This document shows positions 1 through 54,200 of a DNA stretch of 64,000 nt, one piece after another. Source of the stretch: Escherichia coli (GTDB taxonomy: Bacteria; Pseudomonadota; Gammaproteobacteria; Enterobacterales; Enterobacteriaceae); NCBI RefSeq assembly GCF_013122565.1, contig NZ_CP053258.1. One strand, given 5' to 3'. The position numbers and the translations under genes are program-made. The notes under the pieces were generated by a model. That model did not search any database, had not been told where the DNA came from, and worked only from the letters and a program-made list of their open reading frames with translations. Position 1 is the first letter of the stretch. Every line of letters starts with the position of its first letter.

Positions 1-699
1 AAAGAAGTGCTCTTTGCCGTCATCCAGCAGCTTTTTACGGCTGAGGATTTTATTGTCGGCGGTGTCGATAGTAATCAATTCGCCGTCAGCGTTAGTGGTG
101 TAAAGACGTTTGCCTTTGCTATCCAACGCCAGACCGGTACTCATTTTACCGGTGTTCTGGATGGCGGTTTTCAGTTTGATATTCTCGCCATCAACGACCC
201 AAATCACGCTATCTTTACCAATACCACTGATGTAAACGGTGTTCGTGGCATCGTCAGCTACCAGCTCACGCGGTTGCAGCGGGCGCACCTCTTCCGTGCG
301 CTTACGCTCATCCAGCACCAGACGACCTTTCACCTCGCCCGTTTTGGCATCTATCGCCGTGACCGCGCTGTTTACGGTATTACCAAACCACAACGTCTGA
401 GTCGTGTTATTGATGGTGGCACCAAACGGCTTGAGATCGTTATGGATCGCCTGCGTCACTTCCAGAGTGACCGGATCAAGTCGATAAACCACACCACCTT
501 TATCCAGTTTGCGGCTTTGCGAAGTGGCGAGCCACAGCGCGTTTTCTTGCTGGCTATAAGCCATTTCGTAGGCGCCTTTACCTACCGCTTTACGCAGCAT
601 TTCTTCTGCGGCCTGCGTACTGAATGATGAAGCAACAAGCAATGAACCTAACAGTAATGAACCACGCAGGCGCGATGAAAACAGATGACGTAAATGCAT
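1..699 (-). CDS. yncE: YncE, secreted beta-propeller protein; N-terminal 233 codons, C-terminus lies beyond the window start
   Basis: Hand translation of the minus strand from the ATG at 699 gives MHLRHLFSSRLRGSLLLGSLLVASSFSTQAAEE... with a signal peptide; divergent from yncD as in E. coli. The plus-strand ORF 7..627 in the track is the antisense artefact. Confidence 0.85.
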   Translation of the reverse strand, partial: MHLRHLFSSRLRGSLLLGSLLVASSFSTQAAEEMLRKAVGKGAYEMAYSQQENALWLATSQSRKLDKGGVVYRLDPVTLEVTQAIHNDLKPFGATINNTTQTLWFGNTVNSAVTAIDAKTGEVKGRLVLDERKRTEEVRPLQPRELVADDATNTVYISGIGKDSVIWVVDGENIKLKTAIQNTGKMSTGLALDSKGKRLYTTNADGELITIDTADNKILSRKKLLDDGKEHFF

Positions 700-785
700 G
701 ACGACTCCCTTTGATGAACCGATATTTTTGCTGCTTCACAATGCTTCGCTAAGCGTAATCATCGTTACGCTCTTGTTATAAATGG

Positions 786-804
786 GAATGGTAATCATTA
801 TTTT
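786..804. promoter_or_regulatory. Candidate Fur box in the yncE/yncD divergent promoter region
   Basis: gaatggtaatcattatttt matches the Fur consensus GATAATGATAATCATTATC at about 14 of 16 core positions; a weaker cgtaatcatcgttacg lies at 754..770. Both flanking genes are iron-related. Confidence 0.55.
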
Positions 805-940
805 CTCAAATGTGGAGCATTTCTTGCCGTTACGACTACAATTTTCTCAATTACTTAACGTATCGTGCCGTTTCGTTTTCCATAAATTTACAATTTTATT
901 ACCATGACGGCGTTTTCCCATTCTTAACCTGGCTTTTTTC

Positions 941-3043
941 ATGAAGATTTTTTCCGTCCGACAGACCGTTTTGCCCGCACTGCTTGTCCTTTCACCCGTT
1001 GTTTTTGCCGCTGATGAACAGACCATGATTGTCAGTGCCGCACCGCAGATGGTTTCCGAGCTGGATACCCCAGCAGCCGTGAGCGTGGTGGATGGCGAGG
1101 AGATGCGCCTGGCAACACCGCGCATTAACTTGTCTGAATCACTGACCAGCGTGCCTGGTTTGCAGGTACAAAACCGGCAGAACTATGCGCAAGATTTACA
1201 GCTGTCGATTCGCGGATTTGGCTCCCGCTCCACTTATGGAATTCGCGGTATTCGCCTGTATGTGGACGGTATTCCCGCTACCATGCCCGACGGACAAGGG
1301 CAGACATCCAATATCGATTTAAGCAGTGTGCAAAATGTGGAAGCGCTGCGTGGTCCCTTCTCTGCCCTGTATGGCAACGCGTCTGGCGGTGTAATGAATG
1401 TCACCACCCAGACCGGACAACAGCCACCAACCATTGAAGCCAGTAGTTACTACGGCAGTTTTGGCAGCTGGCGCTATGGGCTGAAAGCAACGGGCGCAAC
1501 GGGCGACGGCACACAGCCCGGCGATGTCGATTACACCGTCTCAACCACGCGTTTTACGACCCACGGCTATCGTGACCATAGTGGCGCACAGAAAAATTTA
1601 GCCAATGCCAAACTGGGCGTACGCATTGATGAAGCCAGCAAATTAAGCCTGATTTTCAATAGCGTGGATATCAAAGCAGATGACCCAGGTGGATTAACCG
1701 AAGCAGAATGGAAGGCGAATCCGCAACAAGCGCCACGCGCTGAACAGTACGACACGCGAAAAACCATCAAGCAAACTCAGGCTGGGTTGCACTATGAGCG
1801 TAGCCTGAGCGCACAAGATGATATGAGTGTGATGATGTATGCCGGAGAGCGAGAAACGACCCAGTACCAGTCAATCCCGATGGCCCCCCAACTTAATCCG
1901 TCGCATGCGGGCGGCGTGATTACTCTGCAACGCCATTACCAGGGGATAGACAGTCGCTGGACACACCGCGGCGAGCTGGGCGTTCCGGTCACGTTCACTA
2001 CCGGCCTGAACTACGAAAACATGAGTGAAAACCGCAAGGGCTACAATAACTTCCGCCTGAATAGCGGCATGCCGGAGTACGGGCAAAAAGGTGAGTTGCG
2101 TCGCGACGAACGCAATCTGATGTGGAATGTCGATCCCTATTTACAGACGCAGTGGCAGCTGAGCGAAAAACTGTCGCTGGATGCTGGCGTGCGCTACAGC
2201 TCTGTATGGTTTGATTCCAACGATCATTACGTTACTGCGGGTAACGGCGATGACAGCGGTGATGCCAGTTATCACAAATGGCTACCTGCCGGTTCGTTAA
2301 AATATGCAATGACCGATGCCTGGAATATCTATCTGGCAGCCGGGCGTGGTTTTGAAACGCCGACGATTAATGAGCTGTCTTATCGCGCTGACGGGCAAAG
2401 CGGTATGAACTTTGGTTTAAAACCATCCACCAACGATACAATTGAGATCGGCAGTAAAACGCGTATTGGTGATGGGCTGCTTAGTCTCGCATTGTTCCAG
2501 ACCGACACCGATGATGAAATTGTTGTCGATAGCAGTAGCGGTGGGCGTACGACTTACAAAAATGCCGGAAAGACCCGTCGTCAAGGTGCTGAACTGGCAT
2601 GGGATCAACGTTTCGCGGGAGATTTTCGCATAAACGCGACCTGGACCTGGCTTGATGCGACCTATCGCAGCAATGTGTGCAATGAACAGGATTGTAACGG
2701 TAATCGGATGCCAGGGATCGCCCGTAATATGGGCTTTGCGTCGATAGGTTATGTACCGGAAGATGGCTGGTATGCAGGCACGGAGGCGCGTTATATGGGC
2801 GATATTATGGCAGATGATGAAAATACGGCCAAAGCGCCGTCTTATACTCTCGTCGGCTTATTCACCGGGTATAAATACAATTACCACAATTTAACTGTGG
2901 ATTTATTTGGTCGTGTCGATAATTTATTCGATAAAGAATACGTTGGTTCTGTCATTGTCAATGAGTCAAACGGGCGATATTACGAACCTGCGCCCGGGCG
3001 AAATTATGGTGTCGGCATGAATATTGCGTGGCGATTTGAGTAA
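941..3043 (+). CDS. yncD: TonB-dependent outer membrane receptor YncD
   Basis: 700-aa ORF with signal peptide, plug region and C-terminal aromatic residue (ends WRFE) typical of TonB-dependent transporters; length matches YncD. Confidence 0.9.
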   Translation: MKIFSVRQTVLPALLVLSPVVFAADEQTMIVSAAPQMVSELDTPAAVSVVDGEEMRLATPRINLSESLTSVPGLQVQNRQNYAQDLQLSIRGFGSRSTYGIRGIRLYVDGIPATMPDGQGQTSNIDLSSVQNVEALRGPFSALYGNASGGVMNVTTQTGQQPPTIEASSYYGSFGSWRYGLKATGATGDGTQPGDVDYTVSTTRFTTHGYRDHSGAQKNLANAKLGVRIDEASKLSLIFNSVDIKADDPGGLTEAEWKANPQQAPRAEQYDTRKTIKQTQAGLHYERSLSAQDDMSVMMYAGERETTQYQSIPMAPQLNPSHAGGVITLQRHYQGIDSRWTHRGELGVPVTFTTGLNYENMSENRKGYNNFRLNSGMPEYGQKGELRRDERNLMWNVDPYLQTQWQLSEKLSLDAGVRYSSVWFDSNDHYVTAGNGDDSGDASYHKWLPAGSLKYAMTDAWNIYLAAGRGFETPTINELSYRADGQSGMNFGLKPSTNDTIEIGSKTRIGDGLLSLALFQTDTDDEIVVDSSSGGRTTYKNAGKTRRQGAELAWDQRFAGDFRINATWTWLDATYRSNVCNEQDCNGNRMPGIARNMGFASIGYVPEDGWYAGTEARYMGDIMADDENTAKAPSYTLVGLFTGYKYNYHNLTVDLFGRVDNLFDKEYVGSVIVNESNGRYYEPAPGRNYGVGMNIAWRFE

Positions 3044-38200: not shown

Positions 38201-39191
38201 CGCTGTTCGAAAGCCGCGCATAAAGCGGCAAGATTTCGGTATGGCGTAAGTTCAGCTTGTTCAGCGCATCGGCGGTATCGCGGATTTCCCGCTCGCCGCT
38301 CATAAAGATCAGAATGTCGCCAGGGCTTTCCTGACTCAGTTCGTCTACGGCGTCAAAAATCGCCTGCAACTGATCGCGCTCGGTGTCATCGGCTTCTTCA
38401 ACTATCGGGCGATAGCGCACTTCCACCGGATAGGTCCGACCGGAGACTTCGATAATCGGCGCATTATTAAAGTGGCGCGAAAAGCGTTCCGGGTCGATAG
38501 TCGCGGAAGTGATAATGATTTTTAGGTCAGGACGCCGCGGCAGCAACTCTTTCAAATAGCCGAGCAGGAAATCGATATTCAGGCTACGTTCGTGCGCTTC
38601 GTCAATAATGATGGTGTCGTACTGCATCAGCAGGCGGTCTTGCTGGATCTCCGCCAGCAGGATACCGTCGGTCATCAGCTTGACCATCGTGTTATCACTT
38701 ACGTGATCGCTGAAACGCACTTTGTAACCGATGCAACCGCCCGGCTCCGTTTTCAGCTCTTCCGCAATACGGTTCGCCACTGTTCGTGCCGCCAGACGAC
38801 GCGGCTGGGTATGGCCGATCAGCCCTTTAATCCCACGCCCCAGTTCCATACAGATTTTCGGTAGCTGAGTCGTTTTACCGGAACCCGTTTCCCCCGCGAC
38901 GATCACTACCTGGTGGTCACGAATCGCTTCGAGTATGTCCTGCTTTTTCTGACTAACCGGCAAATTGTCCGGATAGGTAATTTCTGGTCGTGCCGCTTCA
39001 CGCAGCAGGACTTTTCCTGCCGCCTGGTCAATCTCTTTCGCCATCTCCTGGAAAATGGCCTGTTGTGCATCAGGATTTTTAACCTTCTTAACACCGTGCA
39101 GACGGCGAGAAAAACGCAGTCTGTCACGCAGCATCAGCGAATCCAGCCGCTGCTGCAAGGCAGTAAAGGTCAATTTTTGTTGTTCTGTCAT
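35289..39191 (-). CDS. hrpA: ATP-dependent RNA helicase HrpA (DEAH-box)
   Basis: 1300-aa ORF with Walker A GETGSGKTTQLP, DEAH box IIIDEAHERS and helicase C-terminal motifs. Confidence 0.92.
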   Translation of the reverse strand: MTEQQKLTFTALQQRLDSLMLRDRLRFSRRLHGVKKVKNPDAQQAIFQEMAKEIDQAAGKVLLREAARPEITYPDNLPVSQKKQDILEAIRDHQVVIVAGETGSGKTTQLPKICMELGRGIKGLIGHTQPRRLAARTVANRIAEELKTEPGGCIGYKVRFSDHVSDNTMVKLMTDGILLAEIQQDRLLMQYDTIIIDEAHERSLNIDFLLGYLKELLPRRPDLKIIITSATIDPERFSRHFNNAPIIEVSGRTYPVEVRYRPIVEEADDTERDQLQAIFDAVDELSQESPGDILIFMSGEREIRDTADALNKLNLRHTEILPLYARLSNSEQNRVFQSHSGRRIVLATNVAETSLTVPGIKYVIDPGTARISRYSYRTKVQRLPIEPISQASANQRKGRCGRVSEGICIRLYSEDDFLSRPEFTDPEILRTNLASVILQMTALGLGDIAAFPFVEAPDKRNIQDGVRLLEELGAITTDEQASAYKLTPLGRQLSQLPVDPRLARMVLEAQKHGCVREAMIITSALSIQDPRERPMDKQQASDEKHRRFHDKESDFLAFVNLWNYLGEQQKALSSNAFRRLCRTDYLNYLRVREWQDIYTQLRQVVKELGIPVNSEPAEYREIHIALLTGLLSHIGMKDADKQEYTGARNARFSIFPGSGLFKKPPKWVMVAELVETSRLWGRIAARIDPEWVEPVAQHLIKRTYSEPHWERAQGAVMATEKVTVYGLPIVAARKVNYSQIDPALCRELFIRHALVEGDWQTRHAFFRENLKLRAEVEELEHKSRRRDILVDDETLFEFYDQRISHDVISARHFDSWWKKVSRETPDLLNFEKSMLIKEGAEKISKLDYPNFWHQGNLKLRLSYQFEPGADADGVTVHIPLPLLNQVEESGFEWQIPGLRRELVIALIKSLPKPVRRNFVPAPNYAEAFLGRVKPLELPLLDSLERELRRMTGVTVDREDWHWDQVPDHLKITFRVVDDKNKKLKEGRSLQDLKDALKGKVQETLSAVADDGIEQSGLHIWSFGQLPESYEQKRGNYKVKAWPALVDERDSVAIKLFDNPLEQKQAMWNGLRRLLLLNIPSPIKYLHEKLPNKAKLGLYFNPYGKVLELIDDCISCGVDQLIDANGGPVWTEEGFAALHEKVRAELNDTVVDIAKQVEQILTAVFNINKRLKGRVDMTMALGLSDIKAQMGGLVYRGFVTGNGFKRLGDTLRYLQAIEKRLEKLAIDPHRDRAQMLKVENVQQAWQQWINKLPPARREDEGVKEIRWMIEELRVSYFAQQLGTPYPISDKRILQAMEQISG

Positions 39192-51200: not shown

Positions 51201-54200
51201 CATAGTTTCCCGCGCCTTGCAAATTAATGGTGGCGTCAGATTCATTCACTGTGATGCCGTAATCACTGGCCCACAGCCCGTAGTTGACACCGAAATACCA
51301 TTTCAGGGGGGATTCAGACATCCCGCCTGCGTATGCAGGTGTCGTTACAGAGATCAGATTAATAACCCCACCCGACGCATTCGTAACCTGAGAATTCTGG
51401 CCACGAGCACGCATTGTCCCCCCCCTGGAGAATTCCTCACCGCTAGGTTTGACATTAATAATTCCACTATTAGTGATATGTGCACCATTGTTAGCCGTCA
51501 TTAAATCCTGGCTATCCATTGTGTTAATCACACCTTTGTTTTCAACGCTGGACTGACTGCCAATAGCAGAAATAAGCGCACGTTCAAAGAAGAAAAAGTC
51601 GGTTTCCCTGGCTTTACTGGATATATCCGTTACAGCGTTTTCATCAAATATAACTTTTCCACCGTCCGCCACCGAGACCAACGTAAAGGCACCCAATTCC
51701 TGACGGGTATCCATTGTCGAATGACCACTAATGTTAACGGTATTGTCACCAATAACCGATACGCCATCTATAACATGTGCGGCGCTATCACCACTAATAT
51801 TAATACCGCCATCAATATTAACGGTATTCTTCTCGCCAGAAACAATTATGCCACTCACTAAATTTTCCTGGTGTAGCAGCTCCCCTTGTACGGTGATATC
51901 AACATGGCCACTAATATCTACAGTGTTATTTTTACCACTAATCGTTCCACCTGTTAATGCTGTGATTTGTGCATCAGGGTTATCGCCGAGGATGGAATTA
52001 ACATTGATGCTTCCGTCAACGCTAATATGGCTGTCATTACCCGTCAGACTGAAACCTGTAGCACCCGGCGCATTGCCCTCGCTGTCTGGTTGCTGGAATA
52101 CGTTAATATCGCCGCTTAATTGAACCTGTTCACGGTCACCCGCAATGGATACCCCAGTTCCGTACCGTGAAACATCAATTTCGCCCACGTTACCGAAAAC
52201 TTCATCATCACCATCAATCAGAATCCCCACAGAACCGGAATCCGTGACAACAATTTTGCCTTTATTACTTAACTGCGAGTTATTACCGGCAATATCAATA
52301 CCCGTTGCCCCTCCGCTGACGTAGAGGTCACCTTCCTGGCTAATTGTTGCATTGTGACCGGCAACTTTTGTCCCTACTGCATTCGCACCGTCAACCGTCA
52401 TATCCCCGGCGATATTCATCTCATTGCCATCGCCAGTGATGGTTATACCTGTGGCATTTTCACCCAAAATATTAAGATCATAGGTTGCCAGGGTTATACT
52501 ATTGTTGTCGCCGATAATCTCCATGCCAGTCGTATCGTCTTTAACCAGCATTGAGCCAGCAAGAGAAATACTGCTGCTGTCCCCGGTGATTTTTACACCA
52601 GTACCGCTATTTGTTGTGGTGATGTCTCCCACATTGACAAAGGTAGTATTATCACCATTGATTAACACGCCGTAGGGGTTTCCGTCACTGTCCGCCTGAC
52701 CTACATTGATATCACCAATGTTCATAAAGGTTGTTTGATCGCCATCCAGCAATACACCGATGGAAGTATCATCCACCACAGTAACATTACCCTTATTACT
52801 GACGAGAGTACCTTTACCCTCGGCGTCAATACCGTGTGCGCCACCGCTGACGTATAAATCACCCTGTTGCCTTACAATGGCATCTTCGCCGATAATTTTT
52901 GATCCCGTTGAATTTGCACCATCGACGGTCATGTCGCCTTTGATTTCAATGCGGGCATCATCCCCTGTAATCACACTCCCCGTGCCACCATTCGTGATTT
53001 CGACATCACCAACGGTGTTCAACGTAGTACGATCGCCATTGACAATAACGGCCGTACCACCATCGACATCTGTCTCACCATTATTAGTAATGGTGATATC
53101 GTCACCGGTAAGAATACCTACCACCGAACCTTCACCAATCGCGGTAGTTTGACCGTCGTTGTTCAGGGTGATGTCGTTACCGTCAACGTTTATCACAACG
53201 CCGCCATTCAGCGCGATGTTGCCGCCATGGTCGGTAATAGTGGCATCGTTAATATGGAAATGTTCGCCAGTTGTACCGTCTGCGGTGGTGAGTGACTCTA
53301 TGATTATTTCGATTTTTCCCGCTTCGTCATAGCGCCAGGTGGAGGTTCCGCTCGGATTGACGCCATTGAACGAAGCAGTGTTAGCCGCCTCGTCGACTAA
53401 CCAATCCTTTACGATTGTGGTAGTGCCGCCAGGTCCGGTAAGCGTATAGCTGCCATCGTCATTTTTGGTGTAGGTAAAGGTGGTATCACGTAATTTTAGG
53501 GTCTTCGCGTCCTGATCCCAGGTGACATCGTTTTTATAGACCACTGGATCGTGTTTAACTGGCGTGTCATCGCCACCGTCATCCGGGGTGTCATCGCCGC
53601 CATCATCTGGCGGGACGGGGGTGTCGCCGCCATCATCCGGCGGGACTGGTGTGTCGCCGCCATCATCCGGCGGGACTGGTGTATCACCGCCATCATCCGG
53701 CGGGACTGGTGTGTCGCCGCCATCATCCGGCGGGACTGGTGTGTCACCGCCATCATCCGGCGGGACAGGTGTATCACTGCCATCGTCTGGCGGGACTGGC
53801 GTGTCGCCGCCATCATCCGGCGGGATGGGTGTATCACCGCCATCATCCGGCGGGACGGGTGTATCACCGCCATCATCCGGCGGGACTGGCGTGTCGCCGC
53901 CATCATCCGGCGGGACGGGTGTATCACCACCATCATCCGGCGGGACTGGCGTGTCGCCGCCATCATCCGGCACCGGAGACGAATCGTCATGATGATTATT
54001 ATTATCGTGGAGTGCATATACTGCGACACCTGTGACTGCCGCTGCCAGCCCCACTGCAGCCCAGGGTAATAACTCATTATCTTCAACTGATTTACACTCT
54101 GCCGGCAGCTTTTCTAGCTGTTCTTTACTTAGTGATTTAATATTGGCCGGGCAGCTAATCTTGCTGGATTTACGAGATTCATCCGATGTTTCCGCTATCG

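Follow-up and report, generated by a model that had tools for sequence, protein, structure and literature searches.

Classical Fur boxes of Escherichia coli, such as those of fepB-entC, fepD-entS, sufA and cirA, are built on a 19-bp palindromic motif, cluster with a 6-bp offset and overlap the core promoter. The divergent gene pairs fepA-fes, fepD-entS and fepB-entC have their Fur site in the short stretch between the genes; one gene of the pair encodes a TonB-dependent outer-membrane transporter, and both genes respond to Fur. At cirA, repression by Fur is combined with activation by RyhB, and the likeness of yncE to cirA in this respect has been pointed out before (PMC4676285, PMC8896160). 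TonB-dependent transporters outside the Fur regulon are btuB and the pqqU gene of Pseudomonas aeruginosa; for yncD/pqqU, too, unresponsiveness to Fur and iron has been reported (PMC7193533; bioRxiv 10.64898/2026.04.27.721047), and pqqU of P. aeruginosa was found to be constitutive and insensitive to iron (bioRxiv 10.64898/2026.04.27.721047).

The site located between the divergent E. coli genes yncE and yncD (now pqqU) has the same 19-bp palindromic motif as the classical boxes, with 18.1 bits against leave-one-out scores of 17-18 for sufA, entC, entS and cirA. It also has the same 6-bp-offset clustering and a predicted overlap with the core promoter. We see no mechanistic difference from the classical boxes; the left arm of the yncE site is degenerate, with GGGAATGG instead of GATAATGA. 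What sets yncE apart from the classical Fur targets is its product, a periplasmic seven-bladed beta-propeller which is not a recognised iron transporter, and the conserved 5' hairpin of its leader has no described counterpart in cirA. As in the divergent pairs, the two genes are separated by a short intergenic region with a Fur site, and one of them encodes a TonB-dependent outer-membrane transporter, but only yncE responds consistently to Fur. In contrast to the genes of those pairs, pqqU has a predicted promoter module of its own that is clear of the box, and its product imports pyrroloquinoline quinone (PQQ), not iron. As an importer of a non-iron cofactor, E. coli pqqU is similar to btuB and to pqqU of P. 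aeruginosa; it differs from them in that a strong Fur box is located 139 bp from its coding sequence and in that, in one dataset, it is derepressed in two of nine fur mutant strains.

Fur control of yncE is already known, and its operator is an ordinary, very well conserved site that has been documented before. According to the later papers that cite this work, McHugh 2003 reported a Fur box in the yncE promoter (as cited in PMC8896160) as well as induction of yncE under iron limitation (via PMC8896160 and PMC4666370). Iron limitation raises yncE expression 16-fold (PMC8896160). The discovery value of the present site is thus small: textbooks count yncE among the core Fur regulon, its box was reported in 2003, and Fur has been mapped onto it by ChIP-exo. 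Here we describe the site, its distribution, the leader downstream of it and its relation to pqqU.

The yncE-yncD locus

The window, a stretch of 64,000 nucleotides of E. coli DNA, runs in reverse orientation to the K-12 map. A sequence-only reading of it had named yncE and yncD as the divergent genes on either side of the candidate Fur site, which open reading frames and annotation confirm. The first 233 codons of yncE are encoded at 1-699 on the minus strand, as seen from the translation and the RefSeq annotation of matching genomes; the 3' part lies beyond the left end of the window. The ATG is located at 699-697 and the Shine-Dalgarno sequence AAAGGGAG at 712-705. On the plus strand, 941-3043 encodes the 700 amino acids of the TonB-dependent PQQ importer YncD (open reading frame and RefSeq annotation). 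The intergenic region covers 700-940 (241 bp) and differs from that of MG1655 at three positions (864, 875 and 897), none of which falls within the candidate Fur site.

The substrate of YncD had been called unknown in the sequence-only reading, which is out of date. YncD is PqqU, a high-affinity PQQ importer (bioRxiv 10.1101/2022.06.07.495086; PMC12124388), and RefSeq annotates the gene as pqqU, "TonB-dependent receptor PqqU".

A strong Fur box lies upstream of yncE

The sequence-only reading had described a match of 14 of 16 positions to the core of the Fur box. Comparison of AATGGTAATCATTATT at 787-802 with AATGATAATCATTATC gave exactly this count, and the 16-mer is the sole match of this quality in the window, where 0.04 are expected from shuffles. 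The 16-mer belongs to a longer site of 19 bp, 784-802, which reads GGGAATGGTAATCATTATT on the plus strand and AATAATGATTACCATTCCC in the sense of yncE. This site agrees with the palindromic consensus GATAATGATAATCATTATC at 15 of 19 positions; for classical K-12 Fur sites the agreement is 11-16 of 19.

A weight-matrix scan had been proposed as a check. We trained a symmetric Fur matrix of 19 columns by iterative refinement on 15 classical Fur-regulated promoter regions of MG1655 (fepA-fes, fepD-entS, fepB-entC, fhuA, fiu, fhuE, tonB, cirA, exbB, fecI, sufA, feoA, mntH, nrdH and nfeF), with yncE excluded; because the textbook consensus served as seed, the matrix retains some dependence on it. 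Owing to a slip in the gene labels of the published peak table (described below), three further loci (L009 fecR, L011 lgoR and L014 yhhY) did not contain their intended targets, and these were excluded from the training. With this matrix the site at 784-802 reached 18.09 bits and ranked first among the approximately 64,000 positions of the window, above all leave-one-out scores of the training sites (maximum 18.04). The exact per-site probability of this score is 2.3e-7, which corresponds to a chance expectation of 5e-5 to 3e-4 for the 241-bp intergenic region and of about one per 4.6-Mb genome. When the intergenic region was shuffled with its dinucleotides retained, 18.09 bits were reached in 8 of 5000 shuffles. 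A secondary site, ATAAATGGGAATGGTAATC at 778-796, scored 11.06 bits and overlaps the primary box with an offset of 6 bp, which is the spacing of clustered Fur dimers (PMC2189734). An equivalent second hit recurs in many of the orthologous promoters.

AT-rich intergenic DNA raises the background for such a motif, and strong matches also arise inside hrpA and inside a ydbA-like gene of the window, as would be the case if the box were a chance match without a regulatory role. The chance expectation given above for this intergenic region is however very low; the box is also near-invariant over about 20 genera while its flanks diverge, and Fur occupancy by ChIP-exo as well as derepression in fur mutants have been published. 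A chance match is for these reasons extremely improbable.

The two matches in genes were set aside as operators, both being located within coding sequences. The runner-up of the window, GGAAGTGATAATGATTTTT at 38505-38523 (16.6 bits), lies within hrpA and is translated there as KIIITS. It is without a listed MG1655 ChIP-exo peak and probably is a chance coding match. The other one, GATAATAATAATCATCATG at 53988-54006, agrees with the consensus at 16 of 19 positions, scores 12.8 bits and encodes HDNNNHH inside the gene for a ydbA-like autotransporter of 2011 amino acids; this match, too, is probably due to chance. The ydbA-like gene contains long PPDDGGDTPV repeats and is intact in the window; in K-12, ydbA is presumably interrupted.

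Published data show Fur binding and derepression of yncE

In the ChIP-exo data of Gao et al. (2023), the MG1655 peak P44 maps to approximately 780-792 of the window and the W3110 peak P54 to the same place (PMC10164565 supplement). After P36, the gene labels in the published peak table are displaced by one row; the mapping of P44 corrects for this slip as well as for a genome-version offset. Binding of Fur upstream of yncE was likewise detected by ChIP-seq (PMC4676285), and a fur mutant overproduces the YncE protein (PMC5120174). Derepression in a fur mutant had been named as a further check of the site, and published data provide it: yncE log2FC values in fur mutants are 3.1-8.1 in eight of nine strains (PMC10164565 supplement). 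By ChIP-exo and fur-mutant data yncE belongs to the core Fur regulon (PMC10164565 supplement). Taken together, matrix score, conservation, published ChIP and fur-mutant data bear out the earlier proposal that yncE is a member of the Fur regulon and that the site is a genuine operator.

The MG1655 ChIP-exo table contains a second peak, P43, at approximately 1050-1086 inside yncD, labelled as intragenic and not regulated. No Fur-like motif was found in the P43 region; the maximum score within 900-1120 is 2.7 bits.

The Fur box is conserved together with yncE

The comparison covered 80 yncE loci, taken from Serratia and from about 20 genera of Enterobacteriaceae. In about 70 of them, a Fur box scoring 14.8-19.5 bits is located 97-107 bp upstream of the ATG of yncE, and over the approximately 20 enterobacterial genera it is nearly invariant while the flanks diverge. 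The most conserved non-coding stretch in an alignment of 23 species (genera-level representatives) is the block A.TAATGATTA..ATTC.CA, which is invariant. Within E. coli, a 45-bp core was found in 5402 of 5426 complete genomes, and in 4994 records its aligned part shows an identity of 99% or more.

Several loci have no yncD next to yncE (L026-L029, L031, L033-L036, L085, L095 and L096) and nevertheless keep the box. In the Citrobacter loci of this type, curA, mcbR or another gene is located upstream, and the distance between the box and yncE is unchanged; the yncE box is likewise kept in two Serratia loci that lack yncD. According to the comparative data, the operator belongs to yncE and not to the gene pair.

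In Serratia marcescens MSU97 (L097, approximately 250-3000), yncE is without a Fur box of its own and is encoded directly downstream of entE-like and entB-like genes for siderophore biosynthesis, an arrangement that provides a further link between yncE and iron.

The box covers the predicted -10 element of the yncE promoter

Conservation points to a yncE promoter on the minus strand with the -10 hexamer TACCAT at 788-793, inside the Fur box, and the -35 hexamer TCCACA at 811-816. Among 72 distinct promoter regions, the -10 hexamer is TACTAT, TATTAT or TACCAT in every case, the first two being the forms of other genera, and TCCAC[A/T] is present as -35 in 63 of them, each time 17 bp from the -10. 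A conserved CTCCAC(A/T)TT block is located just upstream of the box in the direction of yncE. Both predicted hexamers are weak (4/6 each), and a consensus promoter scan returned, at its thresholds, no match on the minus strand; the single match of the automatic scan, at 735-762 on the plus strand, points into nothing relevant. Two other hexamers were considered and rejected, TATAAC (780-775) as -10 because it is not conserved, and TTGAGA (809-804) as -35 because of its wrong spacing to any plausible -10.

With this promoter, transcription of yncE is predicted to start near 781. The primary Fur site would then extend from about -21 to -3 and the secondary site from about -15 to +4, which would be the ordinary occlusion geometry of Fur repression. 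We consider it highly probable that 778-802 is the Fur operator of the yncE promoter and that pqqU is not under primary Fur control.

A mechanism can be proposed on this basis. When iron is plentiful, Fe2+-Fur would occupy 778-802, probably as two dimers on overlapping 19-bp sites 6 bp apart. Within the conserved sigma-70 promoter, the bound sites would mask the start site, the -10 hexamer (793-788) and that half of the spacer which is nearer to the -10, and RNA polymerase would be excluded from the yncE promoter. As soon as iron becomes limiting, Fur would depart, allowing strong transcription of yncE. RyhB, itself repressed by Fur, would pair with the yncE leader just past the conserved 5' hairpin, resulting in more yncE mRNA and more translation. 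The two layers, Fur and RyhB, would act in the same direction and thereby form a coherent feed-forward loop. The motif with its statistics, its conservation and its linkage to yncE are shown here, and Fur binding and derepression in print; the exact promoter elements, the start site, the occupancy by two dimers and the place where RyhB pairs are inferred.

A covarying hairpin and a RyhB-complementary stretch in the yncE leader

One or more candidate Fur operators had been placed by the sequence-only reading in the interval 750-810. The box at 784-802, with its 18.09 bits, holds up; the palindrome GCGTAATCATCGTTACGC at 752-771, which lies in the same interval, does not. In favor of two separate operators, one at 784-802 and one at the palindrome, it can be said that the palindrome falls inside these coordinates and includes TAATCAT, which is similar to half a Fur box. 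The matrix, however, gives at most 5.2 bits at 752-771, and three loci that have the Fur box are without the palindrome. Across genera its sequence is not conserved but its base-pairing is, and pairing that is kept while the sequence changes is the signature of an RNA stem and not of a protein-binding DNA site. A second operator at this position is accordingly very unlikely.

On the minus strand, 752-771 is predicted to fold into a 5' leader hairpin with a 7-bp stem and a 6-nt loop (AGCGUAA-CGAUGA-UUACGCU), which was selected by RNAalifold and is also backed by covariation. Compensatory changes were found in all seven pairs (7/7; 67 species). In the alignment, 94% of the cells are paired, compared to 34-51% in controls with slid partners, and the covariation score was reached by no shuffle. 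The loop is of the CNAUGA type. Three loci with short leaders (L057, L060 and L062), which retain the Fur box, lack the hairpin. If transcription starts near 781, the stem-loop would correspond to approximately +11 to +30 of the yncE mRNA. No Rfam family matches the yncE leader, and the leader as a whole is not unusually stable (z = -0.54). A "terminator-like" hit at 752-771 stems from reading the leader hairpin in the wrong strand and was discarded.

Directly after the hairpin, at 730-748 on the minus strand, the leader contains the stretch CGAAGCAUUGUGAAGCAGC, which is complementary to RyhB and represents a predicted pairing site. The duplex of the full-length RyhB with the leader was uninformative, 41 of 1000 shuffles being as good, and after this run the calculation was restricted to the RyhB core. 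The local duplex of 730-748 with RyhB nucleotides 41-58 has an energy of -20 kcal/mol, which was equalled by 2 of 2000 shuffles, and it is the energy minimum along the yncE leader. The best-conserved part of the leader, the block GAAGC..UGUGAAGC (GAAGC..UGU), is located within this stretch. Activation of yncE by RyhB has been published (PMC4666370, PMC8896160). In the literature searched, no description of a pairing site for RyhB on yncE or of the mechanism of activation was found, and according to a review CopraRNA ranked yncE poorly. Judged from complementarity and conservation, 730-748 is likely to be the pairing site for the published activation. The covarying hairpin and the conserved RyhB-complementary stretch could guide work on RyhB activation of yncE.

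pqqU is probably not a general target of the yncE operator

Both genes had been assigned to the Fur regulon in the sequence-only reading. For yncE this is upheld by motif, ChIP and fur mutants, whereas for yncD it cannot be maintained as a general statement. Expression of yncD is unchanged in the MG1655 fur mutant (log2FC 0.12, not significant), and it is increased 7.7-fold in the W3110 fur mutant (log2FC 2.95, p = 2.7e-51) and 4-fold in the EC042 fur mutant (log2FC 2.02; all PMC10164565 supplement). These are the two strains among the nine of the Gao dataset in which yncD is derepressed. In other work, yncD/pqqU was reported to be neither Fur-regulated nor iron-induced (PMC7193533; bioRxiv 10.1101/2022.06.07.495086). 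MG1655 and W3110 are both K-12 strains, and thus the difference in the response of yncD cannot come from the Fur site itself.

The organization of the intergenic region suggests separate control of the two genes. A promoter of yncD/pqqU is predicted on the plus strand at 877-905, consisting of TTTCCA (877-882), a 17-bp spacer and TACCAT (900-905), with a start near 912. It lies in a conserved module on the yncD side (window 845-905; alignment columns 101-150, identity 0.73-0.79), which was found only where yncD is adjacent. The module on the yncE side comprises the -35 element, the Fur box and the leader, and the two modules are separated by a variable, poorly conserved spacer of 25-51 nt. From the Fur box it is about 75 bp downstream to the predicted yncD -35 and 110-128 bp to the predicted yncD start; the box overlaps neither this promoter nor its start site. 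A matrix scan of 803-1120 revealed no other Fur-like site above 7.6 bits. Since the operator does not overlap the pqqU promoter module, which is about 100 bp away, we conclude that pqqU is probably not under primary Fur control.

Alternatively, one Fur-bound site could act as a bidirectional operator that represses yncE as well as yncD/pqqU, by which PQQ import would join the iron-starvation response. The rise of yncD in W3110 and EC042, which a model with control of yncE only does not explain, speaks for this, and in the supplement of Gao et al. (2023) both transcription units are listed for the W3110 peak. In addition, a weak promoter-like pair on the plus strand (TTGTTA at 772-777, an 18-bp spacer and CATTAT at 796-801) would overlap the box, and fepA-fes, fepD-entS and fepB-entC are precedents for divergent pairs controlled by Fur. 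These points are opposed by the missing response in MG1655 and the reported unresponsiveness to Fur or iron, by the distance of the box from the predicted yncD start, by the variable spacer between the modules and by the constitutive expression of pqqU in P. aeruginosa. Furthermore, the Fur site is not inherited with yncD and remains with yncE where yncD is absent. We regard a bidirectional operator as unlikely; what residual probability it retains is owed to the W3110 and EC042 data.

Assignment of the operator to yncE is hence the preferred reading. That this operator in addition confers a strain- or condition-dependent Fur control on pqqU is doubtful; such control could be exerted through a distal promoter that overlaps the box, or pqqU could be coupled to the divergent yncE promoter with its strong induction. 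If pqqU were under Fur control, iron starvation would lead to more PQQ scavenging and to PQQ-dependent gluconate production.

Two further features were observed on the yncD side. In Kluyvera, Pseudocitrobacter and some Citrobacter loci (L078-L086, L062, L066 and others), Fur-like matches of 10-14 bits are found approximately 270-285 bp upstream of the yncE ATG, over the start codon of yncD (ATGAAAATCATT...); the corresponding region of E. coli scores 0.9 bits. These matches may simply reflect AT-rich N-terminal codons. The yncD-side block of other genera contains TTAACG...CGTTAA, an inverted repeat that closely precedes the -35; this repeat is degenerate in E. coli (855-875) and may be the site for a regulator of pqqU.
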